Shown: positions 7,314 through 64,000 of the stretch, piece by piece
Layout of the letters: every line of letters starts with the position of its first letter
Numbering within the stretch: position 1 is the stretch's first letter
Source: Callorhinchus milii
Lineage: Eukaryota
Direction of reading: 5' to 3'
DNA length: 64,000 nucleotides
Assembly (NCBI RefSeq): GCF_018977255.1
Contig: NW_024704742.1
Location: 8,806,001-8,870,000, forward strand
Notes under the pieces: generated by a model
Database searches by the model: none
Told to the model about the DNA's origin: nothing
What the model saw: the letters and a program-made list of their open reading frames with translations, nothing else
Made by a program: the position numbers and the translations under genes

Positions 7314-10168
7314 CTGTGAAACAAAACATTTACATAATCACATAAATAAGTGCATTTTTTCAAAAAATGAACAGTTAAATTGAAAGATTAATTTTTAAGG
7401 TTTGGGAAAATAATTTGTTCAAACATTAAAAAAAAATTTGTTTTCAAAATGCAACGATTATACCTTCTTCTATGAAACCAAACATCTAATTTACATTTCA
7501 GAGATAGTCCACAAAAGAGTTCTTCCACACAAAAAAAGTCACTGCATTTCACGGTATATCCCGTGAAATGTTTGGGAACATCCTCACTGTGAAAGGCGTC
7601 ACAATAAACCCCGCCACAAGAGAGAATGATTGAGGGGGAGAAGAAACAGAGACGGAGAGCGAGGGGGGAGAGAAAGGGAAGAGAGTGATTGACAGAAGGA
7701 ATAGTGATTGAGAGAGAGAGAATGAGGGGGAGAGAGCAGAGTGATAGAGAAACAACGAGAGAGAGAGAGAGAGTGCGAGCGCATGGGGAGAGGGGCAGAA
7801 ATCACAGGAGAGAGGGGAAGTGAGGGCATCGTTTTGTGGTTCTCAGCAACCAAAAGGTTGGACCACGTGAAACAATCGTTGTGAAGAGTTTTTGTAAACT
7901 TTGTAAACAGTTCTGTTTTGAAACCTGTTTGGTTTTGTTATTCATTGTCCAGTACATGTTATCTCCACATAAAGATCAGCACTGTGCAGAACTGTATATA
8001 GAAAGAACATGCAATTATAGCTTTAATATACATGGGTTAAACATGGTGCAGAACTTTGCCTTAATGTGTGCAGCCAGTCAGGTACTTGTGTATTTTGTTA
8101 TGTGTTAGTCATATAAAATCCAAATTATACATAATTTTACATGTGCCATATACGATATGACTTACGCAAGTTTGACATAACTCGTACTTTGCATAAATCA
8201 TTAAATGTATGGTCCCAACTGATATGACTTATGTGAGGTTTACTGAATACCAAGTGATTATTATTATGAAATAACAATGGAAACCTTAAGAGATTTAAAA
8301 GGCTCGAAACAGATTTTATGGGGACGTTTTACATACAAATTGTAGACATTCAGCTAAGATTTTTTTAAAAAAAACAAAAATTGGTCACTCACCTCATTGG
8401 CTGTTTGAGGGACACTGCTTTGTGCATTTTGGCTGCCGTGTTCACCAACAATCTACACTGTCACGCCACTTTACAGCATATCCTGTTAAGCGTTTGAAGA
8501 CAATATCTTGACAATGTGATAAGGCATTATATCAAATGCAAGAATTATTATTCATTTATATATTTACCAACTCTGACAGAACGCAAGATTGCATTTCTGG
8601 AGACAGTCAGGATCTTTTCTAGAACAAAACTGGGCACAAATAGCAGAGCAAAAGGAGAACTGGTACCCTTTTCATACACATTCAATATATAGAGTACAGC
8701 CCCAGTTTCCTTAAGAGTGAAAGACAAAATATAGAGCAAAACGACTTAATGGGGATTTTAGTGGCAGTCTTCAAAGACTTGCTTACTTCCCCTACTTCAA
8801 TTAAAAACATTTTTTAGCAACTAGTACAGGTGCATGCCTGTACTGATGTGTGTATACCATCTTGTCTGCTCCCACTGAGAAAAACGCTAAATGTAATTTG
8901 CTGTTGTTGCTCTCCAATTCCACAGAACTCCTCTATATTGGTTTTATATGCAAATCATAGAATCATAGAATTATACAGCACAGGAGGCCATTCGGCCCAT
9001 TGTGCCTGTGCCGGCTCTTTGAAGAAGCTATCCAATTCAATCCTACTTGCCCACCCTCTCTCTCCAAAACCCTTCAAACTTGTCCTCCCCAAATAATTAT
9101 CTACTTCTCTCTTAAAAGTTGTTATTGAATCAACTTCCACCACCCTTTCAGGCAATGCATTCCAGAACCGAACAACTCGCTGTGTGAAAAAAATTCTCCT
9201 CACCTCCCGTTTCTTTTAACAACTATTTTAAATTGGTGTCCTCGGGTTACCAACCCATTTACCAGTGGAAATAATTTCTCTTTGTTCACCCTATCGAATC
9301 CCCTCATAACTTTGAAAACTAGATCTACTAAGTCTCCTCTTAATTTTCTCTGCCCCAAGGAGAATAATTTTCTCTGCCCCAAGCAGCGTTTTGTGGTTCT
9401 CACTGGACATCTGACCCTCAGCAACCAAAAGGTTGGACCACCCTGCTCCACGTGAAACAATCACTAGTTAACTTTCCTTAACAGAATTCTCACTCTGTTC
9501 CACCTCACTCAGGTCCCTCCTCATGCTGCCGGGCTCTCTGCTTAAGGGAGAAAATGAACTGGTTTCTTTAGGTCTAATTCAGTATTGGGTTTAATGAACC
9601 AAGTGGGTCTGCAGTTCTCCAGAGCACTTCTATCAGACCAGCCTGCCCGTTCTTGGGCTGGGCAGCATTTTTATACAATAATAATCCTTGCATTTGATAT
9701 AGTGTCATATTTACATCTTCAAGACATCTCAAAGCTCTTCACAGAATATACTGTAAAGTGAATTGACCGTATATTTTGTGGGCAAAACCCAGCAGCCGAT
9801 TGGATTGAGTGACCAAATTATATTTTTTGGGGAGACGGGATTATTGCTCCCGAAAACAACCGGGTTCTTACTTACTGCTAGGTAAACGGAGACCCGTGGA
9901 GCACAGAAACTTGCCCAACGTTTTGTCCTGCCTGGGAATCAAACCCAGGTCCTCTCGCGTGTGAGGAGAGTGCTCTAACTACTGAGCTACAGGACTCCAC
10001 TGTAGTCATTGGGAGTCATTATATAAAAAAAGTTGTTGTACTGTACTGCGTTGTACACAACTATAAACATGAAGTTAAAAAGCAAAGCTGAACTTCATAC
10101 AATCCAAAGATTATACAATTTGTATAAAGCGGACCCATACGCTTGAATAGTTTACTTCTGTCTCTCAC

Positions 10169-11363
10169 CTGGCCATCGTGAAATCGTTGCTCTCTGAATG
10201 ACATCTGGAGTTTTGGATTTACAGTAATCTGACTTCAACAAGGTATTGAATAGTGTAGACTTTCCAACATTGGTGGTTCCCACCAAATAGACATCTCCTT
10301 TGCGCTTCCAAGAACTCTGCAGTTTTGAGATCAAGTGCTCGATTCCGTACCCAGTTTTGGCACTGATGAGCTGCACATCTTTAATGTTCTGCCCATCGTA
10401 AATCCCATGTCTGACACAGAGATCGAACACGTGCTGCTGGATCCGCTTCAGATAGTTCCGAGAATCGGATGGGATCAAGTCGACTTTATTGGCGAGGATT
10501 AAGACGGATTTCTGCTCTCCCACTAAATCGAGGAGATCGGGGATGATGGTACCGGGGAGATCCAGCAAATCGATCATGTACAGGACAAGCGCCTTCTCCT
10601 TGCGGATGCCGCTCACGATCTCTCGGTACTGTTCAACCGACACTTTGACGTCCAGAGCCCTGTGATGGTGAACGAGCAGAAAGCAGCGCTGACACACGGA
10701 CTTGTCCAGGGCGCCCTCCTGCACCAGGCGCTTGTACTTCTCACTGGGTAGGTACCCGGCCTGGGAGGGCTCGGTGCAGTGCAGGACCGCGCCGCAGCCC
10801 GAGCAGTTACAGCTGCTGATCGGCTCCAGGGGGTCGGGGCTGCCGTAGATCGGGTGCCGCCCGGAGGCTCGTCTCTTGCTGCTGGACGGCAGGTGGGAGA
10901 GGGGGGATTGAGGCCCGGGGCTGACATGCGGCCTCTGTACCTGCTGCTGGCGGGGCCGCGGGGGGCGGCGACCCTGCGCCCCGGCCTCGGAACCCTCCTC
11001 CCGGGCCTCCCCCTCCCCGGCAGCCCGGGCCCCGCGCTCCCCCTTGGCGAGCGCAGCCTCGCACTCGCTAACCCTAACCTCGCTCTCCCGCTCCCCCTCC
11101 GCGGCCTCGCACTCCCCGAAGCGCTCCTCCTCCTCCTCCTCCGGCCACACCGCGCCGCCCCCCGCCGTCCGCGCGCGGCCTGCTCTCAGCCACCGGTGCT
11201 GACCGTGGGCCGTGGCCGGGCTGAGCTCGGGCCTGGCCCCCGCCGGCCGGCAGCGGGGAGGAGGCCGGAGAAGGAGCCGCGGCGGCAGAGTCAGGCGGCG
11301 GCTCAGGCCGAGCGTGGCCCTGAGCAGCAGCTCCATCGGCCTCCGGCTCCGGACACTCAACAT
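10169..11363 (-). CDS. NOA1: NOA1 exon 1 (nitric oxide-associated protein 1, mitochondrial cpGTPase): targeting peptide, Zn-binding CxxC pairs, G4/G5/G1 motifs
   Basis: ATG in GCCGCCATG Kozak context at 11363; Arg/Leu-rich N-terminus; CSGCG...CQRC; NKVD, SAKTG, GTTNVGKSTLFN, TISRWPG; donor CAG|GTGAG after 10169 (phase 1). Confidence 0.96.
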
Positions 11364-11466
11364 GGCGGCCACCTTCCTCCCAGCGGCCACCGCGGCCCGG
11401 GCACATGCGCACTGGTCGCCCTCACTGCTGACCTTTGACCCGGAACTCCTCTCCCAGCTTCCGGTC
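11358..11466 (-). promoter_or_regulatory. NOA1 proximal promoter/5'UTR in a CpG island (about 10450-11480)
   Basis: YY1-like CAACATGGCGGC over the ATG, NRF1-like GCACATGCGCA 11401-11411, DR1 TGACCTTTGACCC 11429-11441, ETS CCGGAA 11440-11445 and CTTCCGG 11458-11464; no TATA. Confidence 0.6.
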
Positions 11467-12639
11467 ATCAGGTTCAAATGTGAAGCTTTGGATCCCCCCC
11501 CCTCCCCCGGCCTTGTTGTTATTGTTCTATAATTATTATTATTATTATTATTACCTGTTATAATAGTGCAGTGCAGTCCTGTCGCTCAGTGGTTGGAGCG
11601 CTCACCTTCGCGTGGGCCCGGGTTGGATTTCCTTACTCCGCGTGTGCACCTCTGGAGAGGAGAGGAGAGGAGAGGATAATAAGTTGGTGATGTTCCGCCC
11701 GCGGCAGTTTGTGGGGGTTCGCTGCCGCGCGCAATCGGCTGCCGCGCTTCGCCCACAAAACATACAGTCAATTCACCTTACGGCATATTCTGTGAAGGGC
11801 TTTTGAGACGTCGAGAAGACGTGATAAAGCGCTATAGCGAACACAAGGGCTATTATTACACAAATCCAGCTTTCTGTTAGGGATTCTCTGTGCCGTTCTG
11901 CTTTAGGATTGACACCTCCGACAAACCCAAAAAAGGCCACCGACTCAACAATAATAATAACAATAATCCCGGCATTTGATACAGCGCTCTTCACGTCTTC
12001 TCGACATCTCAAAGCGCTTCACAGAATATACTGTAAAGTGAATTGACTATATTTATGGCGAAACGCGGCAGCCAATTGCACACAGCAGTGTCCCACAAAC
12101 AGTCGTGGATTGAGTGACCAAATTATTATTGATTTTTTTTCTTGAGGGACTATTATCAGGAGTGTAGAGAAAGGAAACTTGCCCAAGGTTTCACCCTGAC
12201 GGCTGGGAATCGAACCCAGGTGTCTCGCTTGCAAGGCGAGTGCTCTAACCACTGAGCTGCAGGACTCCACGTCCTGCATAAGCATAACATTTACTAATAA
12301 AACTTCGAAAGAAAAGTTTACAAGACGGTAACCTACTTCTACATATCAATGCCATCAATGGATGGTTGCAGAAGCCATGCAGTCTATATGGTACTATCAG
12401 TATAAGTGAGCAACATGTCCTTTATTATTACCTTCTACGTTCTATGACTGAGCCAGTTTTCAATCCAACCAGCTAAGTGAACTCATGTTATCAACAAGGA
12501 AAACAATGTGGTGCAATACCAAATCCAGATTTTGTACAAAGAGAGGAGAAACAAGTGCTTGCGTTGGAATCTAACTGTATGCCTCCATCTCAATTTGCAC
12601 TTGTGACAGCTCATTCATTCGTATATGGAGGTTAAATGA

Positions 12640-14649: not shown

Positions 14650-17421
14650 AAATTCCAGGAAATGTTATTTTGTTGCACGTTTGTGCAGGAATCACAGCAA
14701 AAGCAATTTTGTTCGACATTTGTACTGAAACCACTCAAAATTTCAATTTCACTTGACATTTTTACAGACATTCCATGACTGGACCAGGCTGTCACACACA
14801 GTGACTGAGCCAGGCTGTCACACACAGTGACTGAGCCAGGCTGACACACACGGTGACTGAGCCAGGCTGACACACACAGTGACTGAGCCAGGCTGTCACA
14901 CACAGTGACTGAGCCAGGCTGTCACACACAGTGACTGAGCCAGGCTGACACACACAGTGACTGAGCCAGGCTGTCACACACAGTGACTGAGCCAGGCTGT
15001 CACACACAGTGACTCAGCCAGGCTGACACACACAGTGACTGAGCCAGGCTGTCACACACAGTGACTGAGCCAGGCTGTCACACACAGTGACTGAGCCAGG
15101 CTGTCACACACAGTGACTGAGCCAGGCTGACACACACAGTGACTGAGCCAGGCTGTCACACACAGTGACTGAGCCAGGCTGACACACACGGTGACTGAGC
15201 CAGGCTGTCACACACAGTGACTGAGCCAGGCTGTCACACACAGTGACTGAGCCAGGCTGACACACACAGTGACTGAGCCAGGCTGTCACACACAGTGACT
15301 GAGCCAGGCTGTCACACACAGTGACTGAGCCAGGCTGTCACACACAGTGACTGAGCCAGGCTGACACACACACAGTGACTGAGCCAGGCTGTCACACACA
15401 GTGACTGAGCCAGGCTGACACACACAGTGACTGAGCCAGGCTGTCACACACACAGTGACTGAGCCAGGCTGACACACACAGTGACTGAGCCAGGCTGACA
15501 CACACAGTGACTGAGCCAGGCTGACACACACACAGTGACTGAGCCAGGCTGTCACACACAGTGACTGAGCCAGGCTGACACACACAGTGACTGAGCCAGG
15601 CTGTCACACACAGTGACTGAGCCAGGCTGACACACACACAGTGACTGAGCCAGGCTGTCACACACAGTGACTGAGCCAGGCTGACACACACAGTGACTGA
15701 GCCAGGCTGACACACACAGTGACTGAGCCAGGCTGTCACACACAGTGACTGAGCCCGGCTGACACACACACACACAGTGACTGAGCCAGGCTGTCACACA
15801 CAGTGACTGAGCCAGGCTGACACACACACAGACACACTGAGCCAGGCTGACACACACACACAGTGACTGAGCCAGGCTGACACACACACACAGTGACTGA
15901 GCCAGGCTGTCACACACACAGTGACTGAGCCAGGCTGTCACACACAGTGACTGAGCCAGGCTGACACACACACAGTGACTGAGCCAGGCTGACACACACA
16001 GTGACTGAGCCAGGCTGACACACACAGTGACTGAGCCAGGCTGTCACACACAGTGACTGAGCCAGGCTGATACACACAGTGACTGAGCCAGGCTGACACA
16101 CACAGTGACTGAGCCAGGCTGACACACACAGTGACTGAGCCAGGCTGTCACACACAGTGACTGAGCCAGGCTGATACACACAGTGACTGAGCCAGGCTGT
16201 CACACACAGTGACTGAGCCAGGCTGACACACACAGTGACTGAGCCAGGCTGTCACACACAGTGACTGAGCCAGGCTGTCACACACACGTGACTGAGCCAG
16301 GCTGACACACACACAGTGACTGAGCCAGGCTGTCACACACAGTGACTGAGCCAGGCTGTCACACACACTGTGACTGAGCCAGGCTGACACACACACAGTG
16401 ACTGAGCCAGGCTGTCACACACAGTGACTGAGCCAGGCTGACACACACAGTGACTGAGCCAGGCTGACACACACAGTGACTGAGCCAGGCTGTCACACAC
16501 AGTGACTGAGCCAGGCTCTCACACACAGTGACTGAGCCAGGCTGACACACACAGTGACTGAGCCAGGCTGTCACACACACAGTGACTGAGCCAGGCTGAC
16601 ACACACACAGTGACTGAGCCAGGCTGTCACACACACAGTGACTGAGCCAGGCTGACACACACACACAGTGACTGAGCCAGGCTGACACACACACAGTGAC
16701 TGAGCCAGGCTGACACACACACACAGTGACTGAGCCAGGCTGTCACACACAGTGACTGAGCCAGGCTGTCACACACAGTGACTGAGCCAGGCTGACACAC
16801 ACACACAGTGACTGAGCCAGGCTGTCACACACAGTGACTGAGCCAGGCTGTCACACACAGTGACTGAGCCAGGCTGTCACACACAGTGACTGAGCCAGGC
16901 TGACACACACACACAGTGACTGAGCCAGGCTGACACACACACAGTGACTGAGCCAGGCTGACACACACAGTGACTGAGCCAGGCTGTCACACACAGTGAC
17001 TGAGCCAGGCTGTCACACACAGTGACTGAGCCAGGCTGACACACACACACAGTGACTGAGCCAGGCTGTCACACACAGTGACTGAGCCAGGCTGTCACAC
17101 ACAGTGACTGAGCCAGGCTGTCACACACAGTGACTGAGCCAGGCTGTCACACACACAGTGACTGAGCCAGGCTGACACACACAGTGACTGAGCCAGGCTG
17201 ACACACACACACAGTGACTGAGCCAGGCTGTCACACACACAGTGACTGAGCCAGGCTGACACACACACACAGTGACTGAGCCAGGCTGTCACACACAGTG
17301 ACTGAGCCAGGCTGACACACACAGTGTGTTCAAGTTCAAATTTCAGTACAAATGTTGAGTAAAATTGTGTTTGATGCGATTTCTGCACAAACATGCAACA
17401 AAATAACATTTCATGGAATTT
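14650..17421. repeat. 81-bp inverted repeat pair (14650-14730 and 17341-17421) enclosing the minisatellite
   Basis: Ungapped alignment of the left arm to the reverse complement of the right arm with 10 mismatches in 81. Confidence 0.9.
14776..17326. repeat. Minisatellite, roughly 90-95 units of GTGACTGAGCCAGGCTG(T/A)(CA)n, 26-32 bp
   Basis: Direct reading; explains the repetitive CDSLAQSLCV ORFs. Confidence 0.98.
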
Positions 17422-42600: not shown

Positions 42601-42766
42601 CTTGATAGAGATTGATTTTTCCTTCTGAGCTGAGTAACTTCACGTTCGAGCTTTGCATTCTCTGACTGTAAAACGAGAACCAATGCACTCTGGACGATTC
42701 CACTCCCAGAACCACAAGTGGTTGGTGAATCAGAAGAACAAATCGCTTCTTCAGTTTGATCCACAT
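42601..42766 (-). CDS. CENPE: CENPE exon (PTTCGSGSGIVQSALVLVLQSENAKLEREV)
   Basis: Matches the CENP-E signature TCGGGSGIVQ..AL.LKSE...LE.E; 166 bp, phases consistent. Confidence 0.92.
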
Positions 42767-49789: not shown

Positions 49790-50005
49790 CAGGACTGTTT
49801 TCTTCAGCAGCTCAGTTTCCTCCTGTAGTCTCTTGTTTTCATGTTTGATTCTTTCAATTGTGCTGGATATATTTCCACTTGAATGATTTGAACTGTGATT
49901 CAGAAGTTCCTTTCGGGCATTGATCTCAAATTGTAATTCAGTTTCAGTGATGGTCAGATAGTTTTGATATTTTGAGTCCAATTCAGACAAATTCTGTTTG
50001 GTTTC
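49790..50005 (-). CDS. CENPE: CENPE exon (ETKQNLSELDSK...LKKTVL)
   Basis: 216 bp, phase 0/0. Confidence 0.85.
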
Positions 50006-52286
50006 CTGAACAAAAGATTAGACAGAATGGCATTTGCCACGTGAGGAGCTTTTTTAAAATATGTAAAGAACATTGCCAAGTACAACTCTTCCTATCGGGC
50101 CTCTTTGTTGGCAAATATTTTATAGTATTTTGAGCAAGAAAAAGCTTGACCAAAGTTACCAACTTGAAATAGACAGAGATGATCAAGATCAAACATCAAA
50201 TACCCATCAAACTATTCACATTGTACTTTTAGCATAAACACCAGCAACTCCTGGTGTTGAGGCATGTTTTCGTGTCTGGCACATGCGGAAACCCATCAAC
50301 TAAGAATATCCATGGAAATTTCCCTGTGTCTGAAATGAAATGCACACTCTCTTCCTGGAGGGACACCCTGATTTACCCAAGTCCAAGGAGTGTTCAGTGC
50401 AGGTTAGCAAGAGCCGGAGCTTGGGAACTCCACAGTGCGTATTGAGATACTGCTGGAGTTTAAACAGATAAAGCTAATATATCTTGCCACTGAGAGCAGT
50501 GTCTGGTAAGCTTGTCACTGCTTGTCCAGCGAGGACTACTCTATCAAGCTTAACAGGTGTTGAATAGGAAGAATCTCTCCTTCCAGTGGATGGTTTGCCC
50601 TCTAAATTCTGCCAATGGCCAGCCTGTCACCATCAGTGCCTGAGAGGATTGCAAACCCACGTGGTTCAAAGTGAGATGACCAGACAACTAAAAAAAGTCA
50701 GAGGGATTGACTTGATTCCGATCTTCCAGCAAAGCTCCAAAAAGACTTCACTTGCTCCCCTCCCACCCAGAGAATCCAATCACACCAGAAAATAGAACCA
50801 CCCAACATTGATCTGTTCTAAATTAAAATATTAATCACGGAATCTGAATGACTGTCAATAGATTTTATTTTATTTTGATGGAAACAGAGCTTAAGCCATT
50901 AAAAAGGGCGTCTGTTTTAGCACAATTGTATTTAATTGCAAAATATCCTTGTACTGAATATTGACAGTGTTCATTAACTGTATCAGAAGCTACTAGGACA
51001 GTGCTTCGATATTGGTTTACAAGTCCAGGAACAATGAGGGCAGAGAAATGCCTAGCATCTCACCACAAGGCAGCAAAGAATCTAAACCTTGGAAAGCACA
51101 CCATGCAAGCCATGATAATATGGGCAACACGGTTGCCTGGATCCGATATATTTGACGCACAAAATGACCAACTTCTGGGAGGTCAGTCAGGAAATCAGTT
51201 CGCCGATGATGTCACATCGCTTGCTGAATATTTCCTGAGAAAGCAGGTATTGATGGTCACTTCACACAGTGATATCAGTGACAACCCATAACGCAGCCAT
51301 TTTTAACATGGGAAATAGGCACTAGAAGCATCTTTTTCTGGTTTAGCACAGGTTGACCTGTGTATTTTTAGTTTTTATGAATTCTTAAGCTCAAATTGCC
51401 CAAAATACAACAGTCTTCAATGGTTGGTCTTAGAAGGATGCACTTTGACAAGTGTAGGCCATTCAGCCCCTTGAGCCTGTTCCACCATTCTATAAGATCA
51501 TGACTTATCTGTACCTCAAGTCCAATTATCCATCCTTGCCCCATATCCCTTGATACGCTTACTTAAATTCATCTCAGTCTTCAAAATTTTAATGGATCCA
51601 GCATCCACAACCTTTTGGGGGAGATTTCCACTGCCCTGTTGTGAAAAATTGCCTCTGGTTTCACTCCTAAATGGCCTAGCTGTAATTTTAAGATTGTACC
51701 CTCTTGTTCTGGATTCCCCCACCAGATGAAATAGTTTCTCTGCAGCTAACCTATCAAATCCCTTTATTATTTTAACAATCTTAATTAGATCATCCTTCAA
51801 CTTTCTAAACTCATGGGATTGTGTTGTTGGATGCAGCATTAAGTGTTGCAAACTTTCAAATGAAAAATTTGTATCACATCAATCAAATCTTGAACTAACA
51901 GCATTTTCACTCGCTGAACAATTTGTTTTTCTGATTGGAACTTGCAGCTTGCTGACTCTCCTATACAGTGCAGGGGATGTGCTGCATTGTTGGAGGTGAT
52001 GTCATTTGGTTTAGATGGTAAGCCGATGCCCATCAGCCTGTTCAGGTGGACATTAAAGATCCCATTACATGATTTGAAAAGAGAAGGCGTTTCTCCCAGT
52101 GATCTGGCCAATAATCCTAAATAATTCATTTCATGGCTGATTGTGGGACATTGCTGTGCTCAAGTCAACTACCTTGTTCACCCACAAAACACACAGTCAA
52201 TGCACGTTACAGAAAATCTTCAAAGGCCCTTTAGAAATGTAAGGTTTATTATTATTTTTATTATTTTTATCCAATTCAATGCCCAC

Positions 52287-52511
52287 CTGCAATTGTTGTT
52301 CTTTATTTTCAAGTAAGCTGGAAAGTCTTCTTATCTCCGAGTTTCTTTCTTCACAGTCTGGCAAGGGTAGATTAGCTGAATCAGAATTCAGAGCCCGTAG
52401 CTGTACAAGCAGTTCTTTTTGCTCCCTGTGCTCTTTTACTAGATCTGCATCAATTTTGGTGATGAGCGTCACAAATTTATTTTGATGATAAGGCACGGTG
52501 CTTAGACTAAT
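52287..52511 (-). CDS. CENPE: CENPE exon (ISLSTVPYHQNKF...EQQLQ)
   Basis: 225 bp, phase 0/0; EQKELL motif. Confidence 0.83.
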
Positions 52512-53805
52512 CTATTAGGGAAGCAAAAGTTGGAATAAAAGTATAGTTGTACAGTGAACAGTATAAATTGCCATTATATGTGCAACATTTATTTCTGTAA
52601 AAATTTCCATTTTCCATACATAAGTTTTATAGATAAAGCAAAGACTAAAGTAATCTTATCCAACCTTATCAATCTTTTTGAAGAAGTAACAGAGAAATGC
52701 AGTGGACGTGGAGTGTATAGATCCTCAGTAAGAATAAAGGGCAAAAAGTAGGAAATGGTGTTCCAGACAGATATGTATCAGGATCATGCACATTATTCAC
52801 TATTTACATACATGATTTAGACCCGGTTACAGAAAATATATGGATCTATAGTTGCGTGAAGCACTTTGAGATGTCCCCCCAATGCGAAAGACATTGTTGG
52901 TGTCAAAACTTGCAGAGGTGTGTGGGTGAGGGTGGGAGTGCTACAGCGAATAACGAGGACTTCAAAAAGTTGCAGGAAGAAAACTAGGATAACAAAAAGA
53001 TGCTATAGATTCTATGTAATTGTCTTAAAACTAAAAGGAAAATATAATACATCATTGACTACATATTGAAGGGGAGTTTCAGGGCTTTGGTCGAAAGCTC
53101 ACCAGAAACAGAGTGCTGGAGACAAAGCAAATCAAGTTTGTTTTCAGAGCAAGAGGGTTTGCTCATTTGAGAGGGCGAGCACGATGAGCGGTGCTGGAAC
53201 TATATGGCGCGTGAGACAGAAGTCTCTTCCTTATTTTTTTTCCATGTTAAAATAGGGTGTCCGGGTCTGGCCTCCTCCTCATCCCCCGAGTTCTCTGCTC
53301 CACCCTTGGCGGCCACTATACCCCGAGGCTCTGGAACTGCCTTCCTCACTCCCTCTCTTTCCATTTTCAGGTATCTTTCTTTTCGACCGCGCCTTTGGTC
53401 ACCTTCCTCCCCCTCCCCCCGGCTCCGCCCCGGGATCCATTACTGTAAAGTGCTCTGAGACACCATCCGACGTGGAGGGCACTATATAAATCCAAGTTGT
53501 TGTTGTTGCATGCATACATAAGGATCCAATCCATTATCCAACAATAGAACAATAAATACAGGCAATTAAGAGGCAATTGATGCAGCATACGAGTCATGTA
53601 TATGGCACCTCCCTGCTTTCAAAAGATAACATAACATTATTTTGAGGACACTGTTTCTTCTTTATTTAGAACTTTCAAGCATAAAACAGAGTGAGGAAAA
53701 ATAGTAAAAAGTGCCTGGCACACAGTTCCTTTAAGAAAGTTTAAGCAGTTAAATTGCTTGAAAACAAATTGATAGGAGCACCATAAATATGTTTATGTAA
53801 GTTAC

Positions 53806-54027
53806 CGTAAATTTCAAACTCCATGTCTGATATTGTTCATGTAGCTCCAAATTTTCTCTCTGTAATTCTTCAATAGTTTTTGACAGGGTTACATTTTCAG
53901 TTGCTTCAGATAGAAATCCAGCGAGTAGATCTCTCCATTTCTCTCTCTCTTGTGAAAGTTCTTTATCAGAATTGGAAAGTCGGATGCTGTACTTGCTTTT
54001 TATTTCTACAAAATCCTGGGTGGTGCT
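53806..54027 (-). CDS. CENPE: CENPE exon (STTQDFVEIKSKY...WSLKFT)
   Basis: 222 bp, phase 0/0. Confidence 0.83.
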
Positions 54028-54376
54028 CTGGATTAAACAGGAAGACTCTCTCGTAAGAAAAATTGCCAGTGAATAATATGAATACAACATTCAGAAATAC
54101 ATCGTCATGGTTTTTGTCAATAGAAGAACTCCACAAGTTACTCTGGTGGTAGCAAGACAGTCAGTGGTTGAAAGGAATCTATTCCTTTTTTTAATAATAA
54201 AACAGATGTGATGATTTAGTTTTTACAAAGAATTTACAAAGATCGTACAGCAGAGAAATAGGTAATTCAGCCCAACTACAGAGGTCTACACACACTCCTT
54301 CCTCCCTCCCATACTCTTCCCCCTCATGTGAAAGTCCAGCTTCACTTCCTCTATGATTCAACCAATTCCAACTTAT

Positions 54377-54527
54377 TCAGGGTGCTGATATTTTGCTGAA
54401 GAGAATAAAGCTGCTCCTTTAGTTCCTTTATTACAATCTTGTTTCTTGCCTCAGTCACTGTACTCTGATCTGGATTTAAATGCTCATTTTTCAGGACACG
54501 ATTTCCACATCCATCTTCGTATTGTAT
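54377..54527 (-). pseudogene. Dead copy of CENPE repeat exon A
   Basis: Aligns to 61641-61886 but lacks the tttag acceptor and the 3' third with the donor; runs into TAG. Confidence 0.75.
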
Positions 54528-55136
54528 AGTTTTGTCTTGGGTTTACTTCTTCAATTCCATTGACATTTTTATGCAACTCTAACAGTGAGCGATAAGTCAA
54601 TGAACACCCCGAAATCCGTTTCAGCTTCCTTCCTGGCAACTTTTACCCATCCTTGGAGAACATGGCTTTCCTATTCTGACTTCAGGTATTCATCTGTAAT
54701 AAACTTAATTTGCCAATTAGCAAATTACACCCTATCAAGTTCTCCTCGTAAATCTTTGTTGCCTCCACTCATTCTAGTATCCCCAACTTTGTGTCATCTG
54801 CACTTAACTAGTTTTCTCTGGGTCTGCAAATCCAGGTCAATGACATGTATACAAGGAACAGGAGGGGCCCCATTACAGACCCCTCAGGCACCCCAACAAG
54901 TGACTCCTTGTTGCACAACAATATCAGTGACATCCTAAACAACTGGAAGTCAGACATTTTGGTGTGGGAGCTGAACGGCATGCTGGAGGAGCGCTGGTTG
55001 GCAGCACAGATGAATATTGAATGGGGCTGCACCCCAACCACATTATAACTAGATCAGTATTACAAAGAAGCATATTAAAATAAAGTTGCACTGTATAACC
55101 AACAAGCACAATATATGTGCAATGTATAGAACACAC

Positions 55137-55310
55137 CTGAAGGAGCAGCTCTTTTTCCTGTAGATGGCACGAAAGATCTGTTTCAATTCCATTATTTTCC
55201 GACTGACTCGTTTCACTGTCTACCAGCCTCTGTTTCAAAGTAGCAATTTGTTTTTCTAAAACAGAAACTAGTTCTGCTTGTTCTTGGTTTCTTCTTTCTG
55301 TAGTTACAAC
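55137..55310 (-). CDS. CENPE: CENPE exon D2 (VVTTERRNQEQAEL...QEKELLLQ)
   Basis: 174 bp, aacag acceptor, CAG|GTGTG donor. Confidence 0.85.
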
Positions 55311-55759
55311 CTGTTAATTAAACATTTTCCATGTTTAGTATGTTGCTTAAAAAATTACTTTTTAAAAAAAACATTATACCCTAATAATATTTCAAAACAG
55401 CTTTAATTCTTTCCATGCAACAATTTTCAAAATTGTAGTTGCATTGACAGTCAAGTTAACTTCTGCATTATTGAAACATGGTGGAAAGTTTTCCAATATA
55501 CATGTGGAGTTCTGTAGATTAGTGGTTAGAGCACTCGCATCGCAAGTGAGAGGACGCGGGTTCCAGGCCAGAATGTTGGGCAAGTTGTTTTACTCCACAC
55601 GCCTCTGTTCACCTAGCAGTAAGTAGGAACCCGGTTGTTAGTCGATTGACGGAACACTTGTCCAGGAGTAATAATCCTTTCGATACACTTAAAAAATTGC
55701 AACTACAATTTTGAAAATGGTTACTGAATCCATGACTTTCGTGAGACACTGCTGTCGTT

Positions 55760-56547
55760 TTGTTCGACCCTGAGCTGTCCTTTCTCCCTCACATCCGCAC
55801 CACAACTGGCACCGCCTTCCATCACCTCCGGAATATCGCCAGACTACGCCATTACCTCACCCCTCACGCTGCTGAAACCCTGGTTCACGCCTTTGTCACC
55901 TCAAGGCTGGACTATGGGAACTCTCTCCTCGCCGGCCTTCCCGGCACCTCCCTCCACAAGCTGCAGGTCATTCAGAACTCTGCAGCTCGTGTACTGTCCC
56001 GCACCAGGCTTCGCGACCACATCACTCCCACCCTCGCTCGCCTCCACTGGCTCCCCATCCCCCAGAGGATTGATTTCAAGATCCTCATCCTCACCTACAA
56101 GGCCATTCACGGCCTTGCTCCCTCCTACCTCTCCAACCTACTATCCCCCTACCTACCTGCCCGTACCCTCCGTTCCTCTGGCTCTGGTCTACTCCACGTA
56201 CCCCGCCCCAACCGCCCTACTATCGGTGGTCGGGCCTTCAGCCTCTCAGCCCCCAGGCTCTGGAACTCCATCCCCAGTGCCTTCGCCGCCTCCTCCCTTT
56301 CCTCCTTCAAGGCCGGTCTCAAAACCTTTCTCTTTGACCGAGCCTTCAGCTCCCCTCTCGACTCTCTTCCTCCTCCTCGCTCCCTCCCCTCACCCTGACC
56401 ATTTGCCCCCTCCTCTCTCCCTCCCTTCCCTCCCCTCACCCTGACCATTTCCCCCCTGCTCGGGTCATGACCCAACTGTGCAGCGCCTTGGGACGTCCTC
56501 CTGACGTGAAAGGCGCTCTATAAATGGAATCTTGTTGTTGTTGTTGT
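55760..56547 (+). mobile_element. Young 5'-truncated L2 LINE nested in a SINE (SINE halves 55505-55757 and 56548-56662)
   Basis: Uninterrupted 212-aa L2 ORF2 C-terminus, (TTG)n tail, TGTCGT on both sides. Confidence 0.9.
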
Positions 56548-57340
56548 CGTGTTTCAACCCCCCAAAAAATATAATCAATACACTTCACAATATATTCTGT
56601 GAAGCGCTATGACACATTTCGAATACGTGATAAAGTGCTATATCAAATGCAAGGATTATTATTAACAGCTAGTAAAACTCATTGCGTCAGCTCTAAAATT
56701 GGAAAGAAACCTGAAGCTACAACACAAGTTTCCAATCTTTCTCATTATTCAATGCTCTGCATTGCATTATATCATTCAGGTTGTTCAATACCACCCATAG
56801 ATAGGTTTCCAACAGCAATAACACTTGATTTTCAACAATACATTTCTCGCGTTTCGCCAAACTTTCAGCTTCAAGAGTTTGTAAAAATGGCCATTTTACC
56901 TTAATTCCACCATCTAACCTTTACCATCATCCTCCACCCCCCAAGGATGTCCCTTTCAGTGGGCATGAAGAATCCAGTAAAGTACAACCAATGAATACAC
57001 AATTCAAGCTCTCCTCTTTTAAAATGACTTGTATACATCATAGGACTCACGTAACTTCCCAATTAAATTGGGTTATAACTGAGATGCTTGGATCGTATAT
57101 TTACCCCAACTGTTCCACGTAAATCTTTTGACACTGAGCAGAACTCAAAGAGCCGTCAGACAGTGCTGCGTTAAATACAAGTTTCCCCAAATTGTTGACC
57201 GGTGTCTTCCAGTCAGATTATCTTCAGCAAATACACACACACTGACAAAAGAAAATCTTGCTGAATGGATGAAATCAGTTATTGAAATTAATCATTTATC
57301 TTTCCCAAAAAGTAGCCAAAACTAGGAATCTACTACATAC

Positions 57341-57604
57341 CATTTCAACCTTTTCACACAGAGTCTTCTCCATTGCATCTCTCTGCGATTGAACACTTTC
57401 CAGTTTGTGCTGCAGTTCATCTTTCTCCAGCACCACAGATGATTTTGCATTCTCCAGTTGCTGGACTTGATGGTTGAATTCCTGATCCAGTATTTGTGCC
57501 TTGGAAACGTTATTGATCAGCTCACACCTTAGTTGTTCAACCTCGATCAGTAAGTGGTCACGTTGAGATACTACCTGCTGAAGTTCATTTTTGCACTCCA
57601 GTGT
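57341..57604 (-). CDS. CENPE: CENPE repeat exon C3 (TLECKNELQQVVSQRD...CEKVEM)
   Basis: 264 bp, phase 0/0, open frame. Confidence 0.85.
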
Positions 57605-58312
57605 CTATCAGAAAAAAGCATAAGGTTTTACATGAAAATAACAATATTTAATTGACCAGAGGGTATCCAGGAATAACTGTAGATAAAAGACCATGTGAAC
57701 AAGACCAATGAGCTCCAGCTGCTTGAAACCCATATGAAGATTAAGTGGTGATTAATTCTAAATCTCACCCCCAGAGAAGTATTTGTTCAAAGTATTTATA
57801 CGGCACAAAACTCTCTCAGGTACGGAACCCATCTTCTAGTTGTTGGGTTCTGGAGGAACAGCATCACCTCCAGGGAGATGATGAACCCATGGGCAAGTGT
57901 TTCAGCAGTGTTTGGGTAAGGTATGGGTATAAGGTATAGTCAGTTAGAGGGATAGGCAACAAGACAAATCAACAGAACGATTGAAACCCCTAGTTCTCTT
58001 TCAGCTTCCTTCCTGGCAAGTTTTATCTCATCTATGGAGGGCACGGCTTTCCTATTCAGTGTCATCTGCAGTTTAACTACTGTTCTCTGGGTCTGCAAAT
58101 CCAGGTCATTGACATGTATACAAGGAACATGAGGGGTCCCAGTACAGACCCCTCAGCACCCAACAAGTAACTAACTCCTGTGTGCTGCACAACACGAGTG
58201 ACATCTAAACAACTGGAAGTCAGACATTTTGGTGTGTGAGCTGAACGGCATGCTGGAGGAGCGCTGGTTGGCAGCGCAGATGCGTATCGAATGGGATTGC
58301 ACCCTAACCACG

Positions 58313-58486
58313 TTATAACTGCAGCTCTTTTTCCTGTAGATGGCACGAAAGATCTGTTTCAATTCCATTATTTTCCAACTGACTCGTTTCACTGTCTACC
58401 AGCCTCTGTTTCAAAGTAGCAATTTGTTTTTCTAAAACAGAAACTAGTTCTGCTTGTTCTTGGTTTCTCCTTTCTGCAGTTACAAC
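58313..58486 (-). pseudogene. CENPE exon D1: duplicate of D2 with the donor deleted and an in-frame stop
   Basis: Acceptor intact; reads ...QEKELQL* because a segment equivalent to 55051-55144 is missing. Confidence 0.8.
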
Positions 58487-59168
58487 CTGTTAATTAAACA
58501 TTTTCTGTCTTCAGTAATTTTGCTTAAAAAGTTACTTTCTTTAAAAAACATTATACCTAATAACATTTCAAAACATAGCTTTAATTCTTTCCATGCTCTA
58601 AAATTGGAAAGAAACCTGAGGCTACAACACAAGTTTCCAATATTTCTCATTCTTCAATGCTGTGCATTGCATTATATCATTCAGGTTGTTCAATTCCACC
58701 CATAGATAGGTTTCCAACAGCAATAACACTTGATTTTCAACAATACATTTCTCGCGTTTTGCCAAACTTTCAGCTTCAATGGCCATATTCATTATAGGAG
58801 CAGCAGATTCAAGAGTTGGCAAAAATAGCCTTTTTACCTTCATTCAACAAATAACATTTTACCTTCATCCACTCCCTAAAGATGTCCCTCTCAGTGGGTA
58901 TGAAGAATCCAGTACAGTAATACCAAAGAATACACAATTCAAGCTCTCCTCTTCTAAAATGACTTGTGTACATCACAAGACCCAGGTAACTTCCCAATTC
59001 ACTCGGGTTATAACTGAGATGCTTGGATGACGTATTACGTCATCTCTAACTTGTGACTAAATATTTTGACAATAACCAAGCAGAACTCAAAGACCTGTGT
59101 TAAATACAAAAGTTTCCCCAATTCTTTGGCAGGTGTCTTCCAGCCAGAATATCTTCAGCAAACACACA

Positions 59169-59400
59169 ACAACAACAACAACAACAACAACAAGATTCCA
59201 TTTATAGAGCGCCTTTCACGTCAGGAGGACGTCCCAAGGCGCTGCACAGTTGGGTCATGACCGAGCAGGGGGGAAATGGTCAGGGTGAGGGGAGGGAAGG
59301 GAGGGAGAGAGGAGGGGGGAAATGGTCAGGGTGAGGGGAGGGAAGGGAGGGAGCGAGGAGGAGGAAGAGAGTCGAGAGGGGAGCTGAAGGCTCGGTCAAA
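59169..59400 (-). mobile_element. Very young 5'-truncated L2 3' end with target-site duplication
   Basis: Near-identical to 56330-56547; CAAACACACA at 59159-59168 and 59397-59406; empty site in the paralogous intron near 57230. Confidence 0.85.
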
Positions 59401-59507
59401 CACACACACTGACAAAAGAAAATCTTGCTGAATGGATGAAATCAGTTATTGAAATTAATCACTTATCTTTACCAAAAAGTAGCCAAAACTAGGAATTTAC
59501 TACATAC

Positions 59508-59771
59508 CATTTCAACCTTTTCACACAGAGTCTTCTCCATTGCATCTCTCTGAGATTGAACACTTTCCAGTTTGTGCTGCAGTTCATCTTTCTCCAGCAC
59601 CACAGATGATTTTGCATTCTCCAGTTGCTGGACTTGATGGTTGAATTCCTGATCCAGTATTTGTGCCTTGGAAATGTTAGTTATCAGCTCACGCCTTTGT
59701 TGTTCAACCTCAATCAGTAAGTGGTCACGTTGAGATACTACCTGTTGAAGTTCTTTTTTGCACTCCAGTGT
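59508..59771 (-). CDS. CENPE: CENPE repeat exon C2
   Basis: 264 bp, phase 0/0, open frame. Confidence 0.85.
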
Positions 59772-60051
59772 CTATCAGAAAAACATAAGGTTTTACATGA
59801 AAATAACAATACTTGATTGACCAGAGTGTATCCAGGAATAACTGTAGATAAAAGATCATATCAGCAGGACCACATGGGCTCCAGCTGCTTGAAACTCGTA
59901 TGACAGGTAAGCGGGGATAATTCTAAATTCCATCCTCAGAAGAAATTGTTCAAAGTATTTACATGGCACAACACTCTCTCAGGCATGGAACCCATCTTCT
60001 GGCTGTTTTGGGCTGTGAATAAGTGGAAGAGCAGAAAAATACATCACTTAC

Positions 60052-60177
60052 TTTTTGCTTCTCTTCGTTTATTGTGTGTTCCTTTTCTGACAGATATTGT
60101 TTCAGTTCAATTTCATTTTTCTGCTTTACTTTTAGTTCTTCTTGTAGATTTCTCATCTCTGCCTGATTCTCCACAGC
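60052..60177 (-). CDS. CENPE: CENPE repeat exon B2 (AVENQAEMRNLQEELK...)
   Basis: 126 bp, phase 0/0; with exon A gives DLQESIEM|AVENQAEMR, like the CENP-E stalk repeat DLKENIEM.IENQEELR. Confidence 0.87.
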
Positions 60178-61640
60178 CTGCAAAAGAGTGAATATGAGTT
60201 GCCTATTGTAACAAAAGTAAGGTACAGTTTTAAACAACATTTATATAGCGCCACTCACACAGGGTAGTATCCCAGAGCGCTTGAGAGTGACGGTGATTGT
60301 TATCGAGCCGGGTGAATGGACCTTAGACACCTTTGAGGAGTAAGGTCTTGAGGTGCGACCTGAAGATCGGGAAGGATGGGGCAAGAGTGCAGGATAGAGG
60401 AAGCATGTTCCAGAGTTTGAGGGAGTAGTGGCTGAACTTGCGGCAACCAATAGTGGAACGGAGGGCATGGGAGGAGGCCAGAGCTAGTCGAGTGGAGGTA
60501 AAGGGTAGGGAGTTGTGGAGTTATGCAGGTCAGAGAGGCAAGCAGATGCTACAGCATGAACCGATTTGGTCGAGTTTTAGGATTTTGAAATCTATCCATT
60601 CAGTGATTGGGAGCTAGTGGAGTCTGGCTAGAACTGGTGTGATAGGGTAGTGTTGAATGCGCGTAAGAATATAGACAGCAGAGTTTTTAAATTAACCCGA
60701 TCTTTGGGATACTGGAGCTGGGGAAACTCGCGAGGAGGGTGTTGGAGTAGTCAAGCCGGAAAGTGACGAATGCATGGACGAGTGTTTCAGTAGTGCTTGG
60801 GGTAAGGAATTGTTGGAGGTCGGCAATGTGCTGGAGGTGGAGGAAAGCGGTCCTGTAGGAAGGACAGCTGTGGGTCGAACTTGATGCATAGTTTGGTTCG
60901 GTGAGTCAGAAGGATGGGCAACAAGACAAACAAGACGATTAAACACACAATATGTTGCACCATTTGATAAAGCAAATCTGCACCTGCAAATGTAGATTAC
61001 TCCATTACAATAGGTCACCTATCCACCTGGAGTGATGTTACTGGAAAATTTGTTCATTAAGACCTTTCCTTTCCTAAAACTCTAAAATGTGAGCTGCACA
61101 GTGCCTCGGGATGCCAAAATGGACAAAGTAGAAAATAAACTTTTGTTCAGTTTGGTATGGTGGGAAAAGATCGAATTGAAAGAGTATAATTTTCTTAAGA
61201 AAAATAATGATCCAATAGCTAGAACTCATGCAGTCCAGGCTGACATACCAGTGGAGAGCTGGGAAAAGCGATGCATTGTGAGAGGTGCCGTCATTCAGAT
61301 GAGACATTAAATCAATGTTTTCTCTGCCTGTTCAGGTGGACATTAAAGATAGTATAGCACTATTCGAAAAGAGAAAGGGAGTTTTGTCCCCAATGACTCA
61401 GCCAACAATCCTGCAGACAGAATTGGTCAATCATTTCATGGTTGTTTGTGAGACATTGCTGTGCTGCTTCACCCACAATATACCCAGTCACTAAATACTG
61501 TCCAGTATTTCCTGTAAAGTGCTTTGAGACGTGCTCCCAATGCAAGAAGTGCTAAATCAGCTGTAAGGATTATTTATTTATCTAACTTCTGTTCCGGGAA
61601 ATTCAAGCTTATTGTGGGGAATTAAACCGCTTCAATTTAC

Positions 61641-61886
61641 CATCTCAATACTCTCTTGGAGATCACACTTCATTTGTTCACTCTCAGTTTGAAGGCTTGC
61701 TCGTTCTTGCTGTAGCTGCTTCTTCTCGGTCCTCAGGGTGTTCATGTTCTGCTGAAGAGAATAAAGCTGCTCCTTGAGTTCCTTTACTTCAATCTCATTT
61801 CTTGCCTCAATCACTGTACTCTGATCTGGATTTAAACACTCATTTTCCAGGACATGATTTCCACATCCATCTTGGTATCGTATCTC
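61641..61886 (-). CDS. CENPE: CENPE repeat exon A2 (EIRYQDGCGNHV...DLQESIEM)
   Basis: 246 bp, phase 0/0. Confidence 0.87.
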
Positions 61887-62350
61887 CTAAATAGTTGTAC
61901 AGACATATGATAAATCCTTTGATCACAAGATGGGTTTCAATGAAGATAGTTTGGCCCATTTAATCTCACCCTCCCAAAATACTTATGTTTCTGACTTCCC
62001 ATTACAGCTTCAAGCTGCTTTTTAAACTAAATCAGATTTCTAGGATCCAGGTAACTTCCAAATTCAATTGGGGTATAACTGAAATGCTTTGATGGTGTAT
62101 TATGTCAACTCTGACTTGTCACTGTAGATTTTTTTACACTAACTGACCAGCACTCAAAGACCTGTCAGACTGGTGCTGTGTTAAATACAAGTCTCCCCAA
62201 TTCCTTGGTAGGTGTCTACCAGTCAGAATATCTTCAGTAAATACACACTCGCCGACAAAAGAAAATCTTGCTGAATGGGTGAAATCAGTTATCGAACTTA
62301 ATCACTTATCTATCCCAAAAAGTAGCGTAAACTAGGAATCTACTACATAC

Positions 62351-62605
62351 CATTTCACACAGAGTCTTCTCCATTGCATCTCTCTGCGATTGAACACTTT
62401 CCAGTTTGTGCTGCAGTTCATCTTTCTCCAGCACCACAGATGATTTTGCATTCTCCAGTTGCTGGACTTGATGGTTGAATTCCTGATCCAGTATTTGTGC
62501 CTTGGAAATGTTATTGATCAGCTCACGCCTTAGTTGTTCAACCTCGATCAGTAAGTGGTCACGTTGAGATACTACCTGCTGAAGTTCATTTTTGCACCCG
62601 AGTGT
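62351..62605 (-). CDS. CENPE: CENPE repeat exon C1
   Basis: 255 bp (9 bp shorter than C2/C3, in frame), phase 0/0. Confidence 0.85.
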
Positions 62606-62810
62606 CTATCAGAAAAAACATAAGGTTTTGCATGAAAATAACAATAACGGCTCCACTTCCTTGAAACCCATATGAGGATTAAGTGGCGATTAATTCTAAA
62701 TCCCATCCTCAGAAGTAATTGTTCAAATCATTTATATGGCACAAAACTCAGTTATGGAACCCGTCTTCTGGCTGTGAGTAAGTGAAAGAGCAGAAAAACA
62801 CATCACTTAC

Positions 62811-62936
62811 CTTTTGTTTCTCTTTGTTTATTGTGTGGTCCTTTTCTGACAGACTTTGCTTCAGTTCAATTTCATTTTTCTGATTTACTTTTAGCTCTTC
62901 TTGTAGATTTCTCATCTCTGCCTGATTCTCCACAGC
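62811..62936 (-). CDS. CENPE: CENPE repeat exon B1
   Basis: 126 bp, phase 0/0. Confidence 0.87.
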
Positions 62937-63626
62937 CTGCAAAAGTGAATATCAGTTGCCTCTTGCAACAAAAGTAAGGTCGTTTTAAGCCACATTTCTA
63001 TAACATCCCTCATGCAGGGTAGCGTCCTCGAAAGCTTGACTGTGACGGTGATTAACTCTGACCTGGGGGAAGGGACCTTAGACATGGTTGAAGAGGAAGG
63101 TCTTCAGGTGTGACCTGAAGACTGAGAAGGATGGGGAAAGGCAGAGGGATAGAAGGAGCATGTCCTAGAATCTCGGGGCACATGGCTGAAAGTGCAGCCA
63201 CCGATGGCTAGATAATTGACATCCTTTGAACTCATGCAGTCCAGGCTGACATACCAGCCAAGATCTGGGAAAGCGCTGCATTGGTGCCGTCATTTGGATG
63301 AGACATTAAATCGAGGTCTCCTCTGCCTGTTAAAGATAGTATAGCACTATTCAAAAAGAGAAAGGGAGTTTCTCCCAATGACTTTGCCAACAATCCTCCA
63401 GACAGAATTGGTCAATCATTTCATGGTTGTTTGTGGGACATTGCAGTGCTTGCTTCACCCACAAAATACCCCATCACTAAACACTGTCCAGTATTTCCTG
63501 TAAAGTGATTTGAGACGTGCTCCCAAGCCAAAAAATGCTAAATTAGCTGTAAGGATTATTTATTTATTTTACTTTTGTTCCGGGAAATTCAAGGTTATTG
63601 TGGGGAATTAAACCGCTTCAATTTAC

Positions 63627-63872
63627 CATCTCAATACTCTCTTGGAGATCACACTTCATTTGTTCACTCTCAGTTTGAAGGCTTGCTCGTTCTTGCTGTA
63701 ACTGCTCCTTCTCGGTCCTCAGGGTGTTCATGTTCTGCTGAAGAGAATAAAGCTGCTCCTTGAGTTCCTTTACTTCAATCTCATTTCTTGCCTCAATCAC
63801 TGTACTCTGATCTGGATTTAAACACTGATTTTCCAGGACATGATTTCCACATCCATCTTGGTATCGTATCTC
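63627..63872 (-). CDS. CENPE: CENPE repeat exon A1; the gene continues beyond the window
   Basis: 246 bp, about 3 differences from A2, offset 1986 bp. Confidence 0.87.
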
Positions 63873-64000
63873 CTAAATAGTTGTACAGACATATGATAAA
63901 TCCTTTGATCACAAGATGGGTTTCAATGAAGATAGTTTGGCCCATTTAATCTCACCCTCCCAAAATACTTATGTTTCTGACTTCCCATTACAGCTTCAAG

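Follow-up and report, generated by a model that had tools for sequence, protein, structure and literature searches.

A tandem array of six three-exon units in the stalk region of the CENP-E gene of Callorhinchus milii

How can the tether of an essential mitotic motor gain or lose length while its reading frame is kept? This question is raised by a stretch of the genome of the chimaera Callorhinchus milii (assembly GCF_018977255.1, contig NW_024704742.1, abbreviated C1 in coordinates), comprising 64,000 nucleotides (nt) at C1:8806001-8870000 and here called the window. One end of the window carries, on the minus strand, repeated exons of the gene for the kinetochore kinesin CENP-E (kinesin-7), and the array continues past the window edge into the adjoining stretch, L011. 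Very probably, the stalk part of this single CENP-E gene was enlarged by head-to-tail copying of an ~2 kb block of three exons, A, B and C, to six units.

Like Xenopus and human CENP-E, the protein carries a kinesin motor at its N-terminal end, followed by a very long coiled-coil stalk, which is discontinuous and functionally important, and a C-terminal kinetochore- and microtubule-binding tail. According to the passages available from the two studies, the stalk of Xenopus CENP-E is a flexible, discontinuous coiled coil of 230 +/- 25 nm (Kim et al. 2008, PMC2364708), and a 'Bonsai' form of CENP-E whose stalk is shortened is impaired in the maintenance of attachment (Vitre et al. 2014, PMC4116301). 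The long flexible stalk is thought to set the reach of the kinetochore for microtubules (PMC2364708, PMC4116301, same passages). Unlike the proteins described there, about half of the protein studied here consists of six three-exon units with 92-99.8% identical DNA, introns included.

Anatomy of the exon array

Self-comparison of positions 50000-64000 revealed direct repeats well above chance expectation, among them 61465-61764 and 63451-63750, with 95% identity and a spacing of 1986, and the stretch 57233-57532, which is present in three copies. Blastn self-comparison aligned 61222-62014 with 63228-64000 (92.7% over 794 nt, E = 0) and 57233-57844 with 59400-60007 (92.2% identity). Exons were called from minus-strand stop-to-stop frames and from alignments of the copies with their flanks, and four exon types were found: A with 246 nt and 82 amino acids (aa), B with 126 nt and 42 aa, C with 255-267 nt and 85-89 aa, and D with 174 nt and 58 aa. 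All 19 array exons (6 A, 6 B and 7 C) as well as the live D exon have AG/GT sites, a length divisible by 3, no stops and phase 0-0.

Within the next 8 kb past the window edge, four further A-B-C units are located, giving six tandem units, U1-U6, in total, of which the window alone showed a third. The unit periods are 1986-2053 nt, with U6 being longer, and U6 is followed by a dead D exon, a seventh C exon (C7), the live D and a dead A fragment. Most of this anatomy had been anticipated in a preliminary description of the window made from its letters alone: the exon order A-B-C-A-B-C-(dead D)-C-D-(dead A) was reproduced exactly, the introns are duplicated with the exons at an A period of 1986 bp, every live module is phase 0 at both ends with AG...GT, and the A-B-C unit has the stated 209-212 aa (unit 1 has 213 aa). 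The array also runs off the window edge as described, and the upstream count that had been proposed as a check gave the six units. Whole-genome searches with one C exon and one A exon returned exactly seven copies of C, six of A and the partial A, every one of them at the CENP-E locus and none on another contig (7/7 candidates scored for each query).

All exons discussed here lie on the minus strand. Upstream of unit 1, a unique stalk exon precedes the array (L011:8382-8750, equal to C1:8878382-8878750). Units 1 to 4 are located beyond the window, in L011: unit 1 with A at 7765-8010, B at 6952-7077 and C at 6421-6687, unit 2 with A at 5717-5962, B at 4915-5040 and C at 4368-4631, unit 3 with A at 3667-3912, B at 2846-2971 and C at 2325-2579, and unit 4 with A at 1614-1859, B at 798-923 and C at 338-592. 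Unit 5 is the first unit in the window. Its A exon (63627..63872, 82 aa, the A1 of the preliminary description) has the acceptor TTTAG and the donor GTAAAT and matches residues 1398-1479 of the public protein model XP_042194522.1 at 100%; its B exon (62811..62936, 42 aa) has the acceptor TTGCAG and the donor GTAAGT; and its C exon (62351..62605, 85 aa) is of a short form, having lost 9 nt close to its 3' end. Units 3, 4 and 5 have C exons of identical DNA (0/255 differences).

The inter-unit intron between C of unit 5 and A of unit 6 (61887..62350) contains the duplication junction. In alignments, its first ~310 nt equal the intron that follows every C exon, and its last ~52 nt equal the sequence before the first A exon; the junction intron is also seen by blastn (57041-57646 versus 62041-62646, 88%). 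In unit 6, the A exon (61641..61886, 82 aa) is separated from B by an intron of 1463 nt (60178..61640), compared with 676-695 nt in the other five units; it contains additional interspersed-repeat sequence, and parts of these introns match many places in the genome at 72-81%. The B exon (60052..60177, 42 aa) and the C exon (59508..59771, 88 aa; C6) of this unit correspond to residues 1689-1730 and 1731-1818 of XP_042194522.1.

Downstream of unit 6, the dead D exon (58313..58486) has kept its acceptor, but ~94 nt including the donor are deleted and the frame runs into a TAA; it is present in none of the 7 public models of the gene. C7 (57341..57604, 88 aa, residues 1819-1906) stands directly after C6 in the mRNA models, and its flanks are 92% identical to those of C6 by blastn. 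The live D exon (55137..55310, 58 aa, phase 0-0) is joined to the next stalk exon, which is not repeated (53806..54027, 74 aa, residues 1965-2038). The dead A fragment (54377..54527) is 89% identical to the A exons of units 5 and 6 over 151 nt and has no AG acceptor; the homology then ends. An inverted pair of interspersed repeats was also noted, at 56333-56550 in the intron between C7 and D and at 59175-59400 in the intron between C6 and the dead D (94.7% over 227 nt). Both sites have very high contig depth in all of the sequencing runs described below, as expected for a common repeat family.

Identity of the gene

Six public C. milii proteins named centromere-associated protein E-like match the C exon at 100% identity. 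An exhaustive search with an A-exon profile retrieved XP_042194522.1 (RefSeq, 2584 aa), which is recorded on this same contig of 139,202,109 bases, maps back to the locus at 100% and holds all six units, C7 and D; diatom and mite proteins that matched the same profile were discarded as repetitive or coiled-coil chance matches. On minus-strand exons upstream of the array, the Pfam family Kinesin (PF00225) scored 55.6, 35.7 and 54.7 bits at a cut-off of 29.3, with one further exon below the cut-off at 22.3. Twelve tblastn pieces, from C1:8915458 down to 8894941, are collinear with residues 21-445 of the CENP-E of the sawfish Pristis pectinata, and P-loop, switch I and switch II are readable in them. 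XP_042194522.1 begins after these motor exons (C1:8894941-8915458, minus strand), and this public model is probably 5'-truncated. We infer that motor and stalk are joined in one mRNA, for which a full-length protein of ~2935 aa would be expected (2584 aa plus ~351 aa of motor). The introns between the motor exons and the array contain reverse-transcriptase-like frames (ext 89657-90757 and 95466-95960).

When coelacanth CENP-E was compared with the whole genome, 8 of 8 matches fell within C1:8848603-8883568 on the minus strand (36/38 candidates scored), and the tail of the coelacanth protein matches window positions 42603-42752. Residues 2380-2584 of XP_042194522.1 found 16 proteins, every one of them named CENP-E or E-like, with E = 2e-17 for the sawfish and 2e-11 to 5e-7 for frogs. 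On the basis of the motor exons, the coelacanth match, the C-terminal tail and the named models, the locus is taken as the single CENP-E orthologue of the genome, in agreement with the gene name given in the preliminary description. A second CENP-E paralogue or a pseudogene was considered and rejected, as there is one locus only and the frames are intact. Matches of XP_042194522.1 to the Pfam families DUF5527 (20.9 bits, cut-off 28.5) and MucBP_2 (18 bits, cut-off 23.4) were below threshold and were set aside as chance.

Divergence between the units

The alignments show directly that symmetric phase-0 exon modules were duplicated in tandem and recently, together with their introns, as had been proposed from the window. 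Whole units, introns included, differ by 0.2-8%. The closest pair is U4-U5, with 1/627 differences in exons and 4/1359 in introns, followed by U3-U4 (5/627 and 7/1359) and U1-U2 (16/636 and 25/1395). Between U1 and U2 on the one hand and U3-U5 on the other, the divergence is ~4.5% in exons and ~8% in introns. The exons of U6 are ~4% from those of the other units, and its introns are far more diverged, the A-B intron being ~770 nt longer. Insertions and deletions are nested in the same way: the 9-nt deletion in C is common to U3-U5, a 61-nt intron deletion is found only in U4 and U5, and the C exon of unit 1 alone among the C copies has a 3-nt insertion. In the alignments, the unit boundary falls ~52 nt upstream of the A exon and, at the other end, ~310-410 nt downstream of the C exon.

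Along the unit, the divergence is uneven. When units 1 and 2 are compared with units 4 and 5, the first 300 nt of the A-B intron show 3/299 differences, whereas its last 300 nt show 27-29 among 271-282 sites. The A exons of units 6 and 4 show 2/246 differences, yet the adjoining intron shows 24/298, a contrast that would mark a crossover or conversion boundary. Such mosaic divergence is the pattern that units would acquire by exchanging sequence repeatedly, through unequal crossing-over or gene conversion. An older duplication of ~2.0-2.2 kb, detected by blastn, gave the pairs C6-D (dead) and C7-D.

Selection and splicing of the copies

In all 11 pairs between the three old unit groups, the ratio of non-synonymous to synonymous differences per site (pN/pS) was 0.22-0.36, with Fisher p values of 7e-5 to 3e-3 in the four old-group pairs tested. 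These ratios indicate that the old copies have been retained as coding sequence, under purifying selection, since they split.

To follow the exons into RNA, four sequencing runs were available, all stored as contigs, of which three are RNA-like (X5, X6 and X7) and one is DNA-like. The RNA status of X5-X7 is a guess, and only their splice joints were relied on; contig depth, which cannot give copy number, was left unused, and uncovered parts were not interpreted. The joint between A and B of unit 5 (62935|63626) has CT..AC ends at the exact predicted exon ends and was found in 3/3 RNA-like runs and in 0/1 DNA-like runs. The same distribution was observed for the joint between D and the next exon (54027|55137, CT..AC ends). 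In X5, two contigs pass from the 3' end of a long-form C exon to the 5' end of an A exon, which is the joint between units. A 669-nt contig of X6 reads A-B-C-A; its B piece equals the B exon of unit 1 exactly, and its C piece has the 3-nt insertion unique to the C exon of unit 1. The C-to-A joints of X5 and the A-B-C-A contig of X6 therefore show that at least two units follow one another in RNA, contrary to the case of transcripts carrying only one copy of each exon, which the preliminary description had named as one that would refute it.

Predicted structure of a unit

A monomer model of unit 6 (212 aa) was made with AlphaFold2 (AF2) and no alignment. In this model, residues 1-19 have a predicted local distance difference test score (pLDDT) below 50 and are non-helical, while residues 20-211 form one helix with a mean pLDDT of 90.1. 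Two copies of the unit are modelled as an in-register parallel pair with a score of 0.35, the best of 3 controls scoring 0.00. The pair contacts follow a 3-4 spacing over residues 1636-1815 of XP_042194522.1, except for a shift by one residue near 1762-1766; at least 94% of the contacts are common to the runs, and the pLDDT of the partner is at least 81. The mark set for the pair score is reached by 21/30 proteins solved as pairs of one chain and by 0/23 solved as single chains; among eukaryotes it is reached by 17/29, but by only 1/7 without an older solved relative. The pass of the pair model may thus reflect a likeness to solved coiled coils, which abound among structures.

The helical rise in a coiled coil is 0.1485 nm per residue. 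With 180-192 helical residues, a unit would thus be ~27-28.5 nm long and six units ~160-170 nm. The earlier value of ~30 nm per unit, given for a fully coiled-coil unit, was close to that of the folded helix, which with ~190 residues measures 27-28.5 nm. As a non-helical linker of ~20 residues is predicted in every unit, each unit would bring its own break in the coiled coil, which fits the discontinuous, flexible stalk described for Xenopus CENP-E.

Proposed origin of the array

Tandem duplication of symmetric-phase exons is a textbook route to longer repetitive proteins. In the explanation favoured here, a block of ~2 kb with three phase-0 exons would have been copied head to tail until six stood in a row, followed by the remains of the older C-D duplication (C6, dead D, C7 and D) and by the dead A fragment. 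Unequal crossing-over or gene conversion between units probably made the copies and reshuffles them, a mechanism suggested by the hierarchy of divergence and the mosaic segments. Because every exon is phase 0-0, the gain or loss of a unit would keep the reading frame. The exons are spliced into mRNA, also across the unit border from a C exon to the following A exon, and are retained by purifying selection. Each unit would then add a short non-helical linker and a helix of ~180-190 residues, forming an in-register parallel dimer of ~27-28 nm, and the six units (1264 aa) would account for about half of the protein and for most of the length of the tether.

The array shares with other cases of symmetric-phase tandem exon duplication the adjacent copies on the same strand, the inclusion of introns, phase 0-0 and turnover by unequal crossing-over, and there is no difference in principle. 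What is special to this case is the target, the tether of an essential mitotic motor, and the youth of the copies. The literature searched, which consisted mostly of titles and the starts of abstracts with subscription journals outside its coverage, described neither this array nor any young repeats in a CENP-E stalk, and the available passages of PMC11230421 deal with site-wise selection, not with stalk repeats. The mechanism is textbook, and the gene model is already public.

Comparison with other CENP-E proteins

The orthologues compared are the returns of one word-based search with the tail, and every one is a predicted model. In the sawfish P. pectinata CENP-E (2481 aa), module profiles for A and C detected one A-like module at 1032-1086 with an independent E-value (iE) of 6e-13 and, at 1266-1776, six C-like modules in tandem (period ~86 aa, iE of 3e-12 to 8e-20). 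Judged by eye, the A-like module is succeeded by a B-like stretch and the C array by a D-like one. The sawfish thus has module types in common with the chimaera; unlike in the chimaera, C alone is repeated rather than A-B-C, and the copies are old, none reaching 80% identity. The partial coelacanth protein has two significant A-like modules, and two of the frogs have between one and three, while the B-module profile gave nothing outside C. milii at the threshold used in this orthologue set.

Windowed self-comparison detected internal copies of at least 80% identity in 5/7 full-length models (Callorhinchus, Discoglossus, Rhinoderma, Pelobates fuscus and Eleutherodactylus) and none in Pristis and P. 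cultripes. Older internal repeats are present in all 8 proteins compared, coelacanth included. Callorhinchus is the extreme, with residues 541-1920 (1380 aa) in young copies and up to seven copies of one stretch. Two statements of the preliminary description agree with these comparisons: the array is lineage-specific, as the A-like or C-like modules of CENP-E in sawfish and coelacanth are all diverged and none of their copies reaches 80% identity, and the CENP-E stalk has ancient degenerate repeats, as indicated by the module profiles in these two species and by self-comparison.

The frog models resemble the chimaera in having young stalk repeats, but they differ in modules, periods and positions and have fewer copies and less repeat in total; they were compared as protein models, with the genes unseen. 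Pelobates fuscus (3731 aa) has four copies ~75 aa apart with 83-86% identity and a ~200-aa block twice, Eleutherodactylus coqui (3042 aa) has three tandem copies with a 167-aa period and one more copy 425 aa upstream, Rhinoderma darwinii (3602 aa) has a ~287-aa block twice, and Discoglossus pictus (3427 aa) a ~106-aa block twice. The repeats of P. fuscus were not seen at 80% identity or above in P. cultripes (3160 aa), whose model is without the first ~195 motor residues. From these models, the difference looks like a recent change of stalk repeats between congeneric frogs. Taken together, the comparisons suggest that stalk modules turn over recurrently, lineage by lineage, with the total length held within a band.

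With the sawfish and frog models, the locus suggests that turnover of the stalk's sequence is tolerated as long as its length and its coiled-coil character persist. It offers a natural series, a stalk of near-identical units of ~27-28 nm that would be gained, lost or skipped without a break in the frame, and should individuals or related species differ in copy number, it would be a natural experiment on the importance of tether length. Older gene models under-represent this gene, and the current RefSeq model lacks the motor exons just upstream. A wider reading, which we put forward tentatively and consider possible rather than probable, is that the middle of the stalk is a vertebrate-wide hotspot of exon-block turnover within a length of ~2500-3700 aa, each lineage amplifying modules of its own: the chimaera has A-B-C six times, the sawfish about six C modules, and frogs have different blocks. 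In C. milii, the youngest units (0.2-0.8% apart) might then still be segregating in copy number, so that the kinetochore tethers of individuals would differ by steps of ~27-28 nm, and phase-0 exon skipping could add somatic tuning.

Alternative explanations

Several observations weigh against a transcribed array of six units. In each of the six older public models, no more than one or two A-B-C units are present, and the inclusion of C6 and C7 varies. One X7 contig joins a B exon of the U3-5 type directly to a C7-like exon, the same order as in the older model P0006; this fits a one-unit transcript or haplotype, or a chimera of the de Bruijn graph. In the X6 contig, the A piece that follows the C exon of unit 1 (window 61823-61885) has no exact counterpart among the six A exons of the assembly, with 1 nt of difference to the nearest, which may be due to contigs mixing copies or to individuals differing. 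The youngest pairs have too few changes to show constraint (U3-U4: 1 synonymous, 4 non-synonymous), the presence of all six units in one mRNA would follow from a predicted model, and, contigs being unable to count units, the number given for the three youngest ones, which are 0.2-0.8% apart, is that of the assembly. The X7 joint, the X6 A piece and the older models fit graph chimeras, a collapsed older assembly, individual differences or real exon skipping. In a separate observation, the first C exon of the older models P0002 and P0005 matches no assembled C exon; it has 6 mismatches to the short form and combines a U2-like body with the short 3' end, and could stem from collapse in the older assembly or from another individual with a recombinant unit. 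If most copies were silent, mature mRNA would normally contain one or two units and the effective stalk would be far shorter than in the RefSeq model. The older models and the X7 contig agree with this, and phase 0-0 throughout would leave any skip in frame. It is nevertheless quite unlikely, as the pN/pS of 0.22-0.36 between old groups and the intact sites and frames of 19/19 exons would be unexpected in unused copies, and C-to-A joints between units are found in X5 and X6; moreover, the assembly behind the older models probably lacked units, and contigs from short reads are unable to count them.

The same older models, made from an earlier assembly and with at most two units, might instead indicate that units 3-5 (99.2-99.8% identical) were over-expanded or mis-joined in the present assembly and that the true number is lower; the four runs, being contigs only, showed no spanning reads. 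We regard this as very unlikely, because U4 and U5 differ at 5 sites and 1 gap column in 1986 nt, U3 is without the 61-nt deletion, no stray copies are found on other contigs, and units 1, 2 and 6, being 2-8% apart, cannot be artefacts of each other. Short-read and early assemblies, moreover, usually collapse such repeats rather than expand them. A different objection concerns the age of the array, whose number of repeats could be old, dating from early jawed vertebrates, with the units homogenized by gene conversion and the stalk not recently lengthened. The mosaic of divergence along the unit is compatible with this, as are the six tandem C-like modules of the sawfish and the two significant A-like modules of the coelacanth; the estimated ~2935 aa also lie inside the 2481-3731 aa range of the other models, so that the protein is not unusually long. 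Identity, however, spans whole introns with their interspersed repeats and is accompanied by nested shared indels, as whole-unit duplication gives, and the sawfish repeats C alone with a single A-like module, which argues that the triplet array is not shared. An old array of constant number is thus unlikely, and since unequal crossing-over alters copy number anyway, it shades into the explanation by head-to-tail copying.

Neighbouring features of the window

Downstream of CENP-E and on the same strand, the window contains an open exon of 477 codons (10152-11585, minus strand), which matches the Pfam family MMR_HSR1 with 30.1 bits, above the cut-off, over a C-terminal GTPase part. We take it to resemble the first exon of a YqeH/NOA1-type mitochondrial GTPase gene. 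A minisatellite at 14776-17326, with a 26-nt unit in ~95 copies and 91% matches, explains the G+C-rich block and the long repetitive frames in that part of the window.

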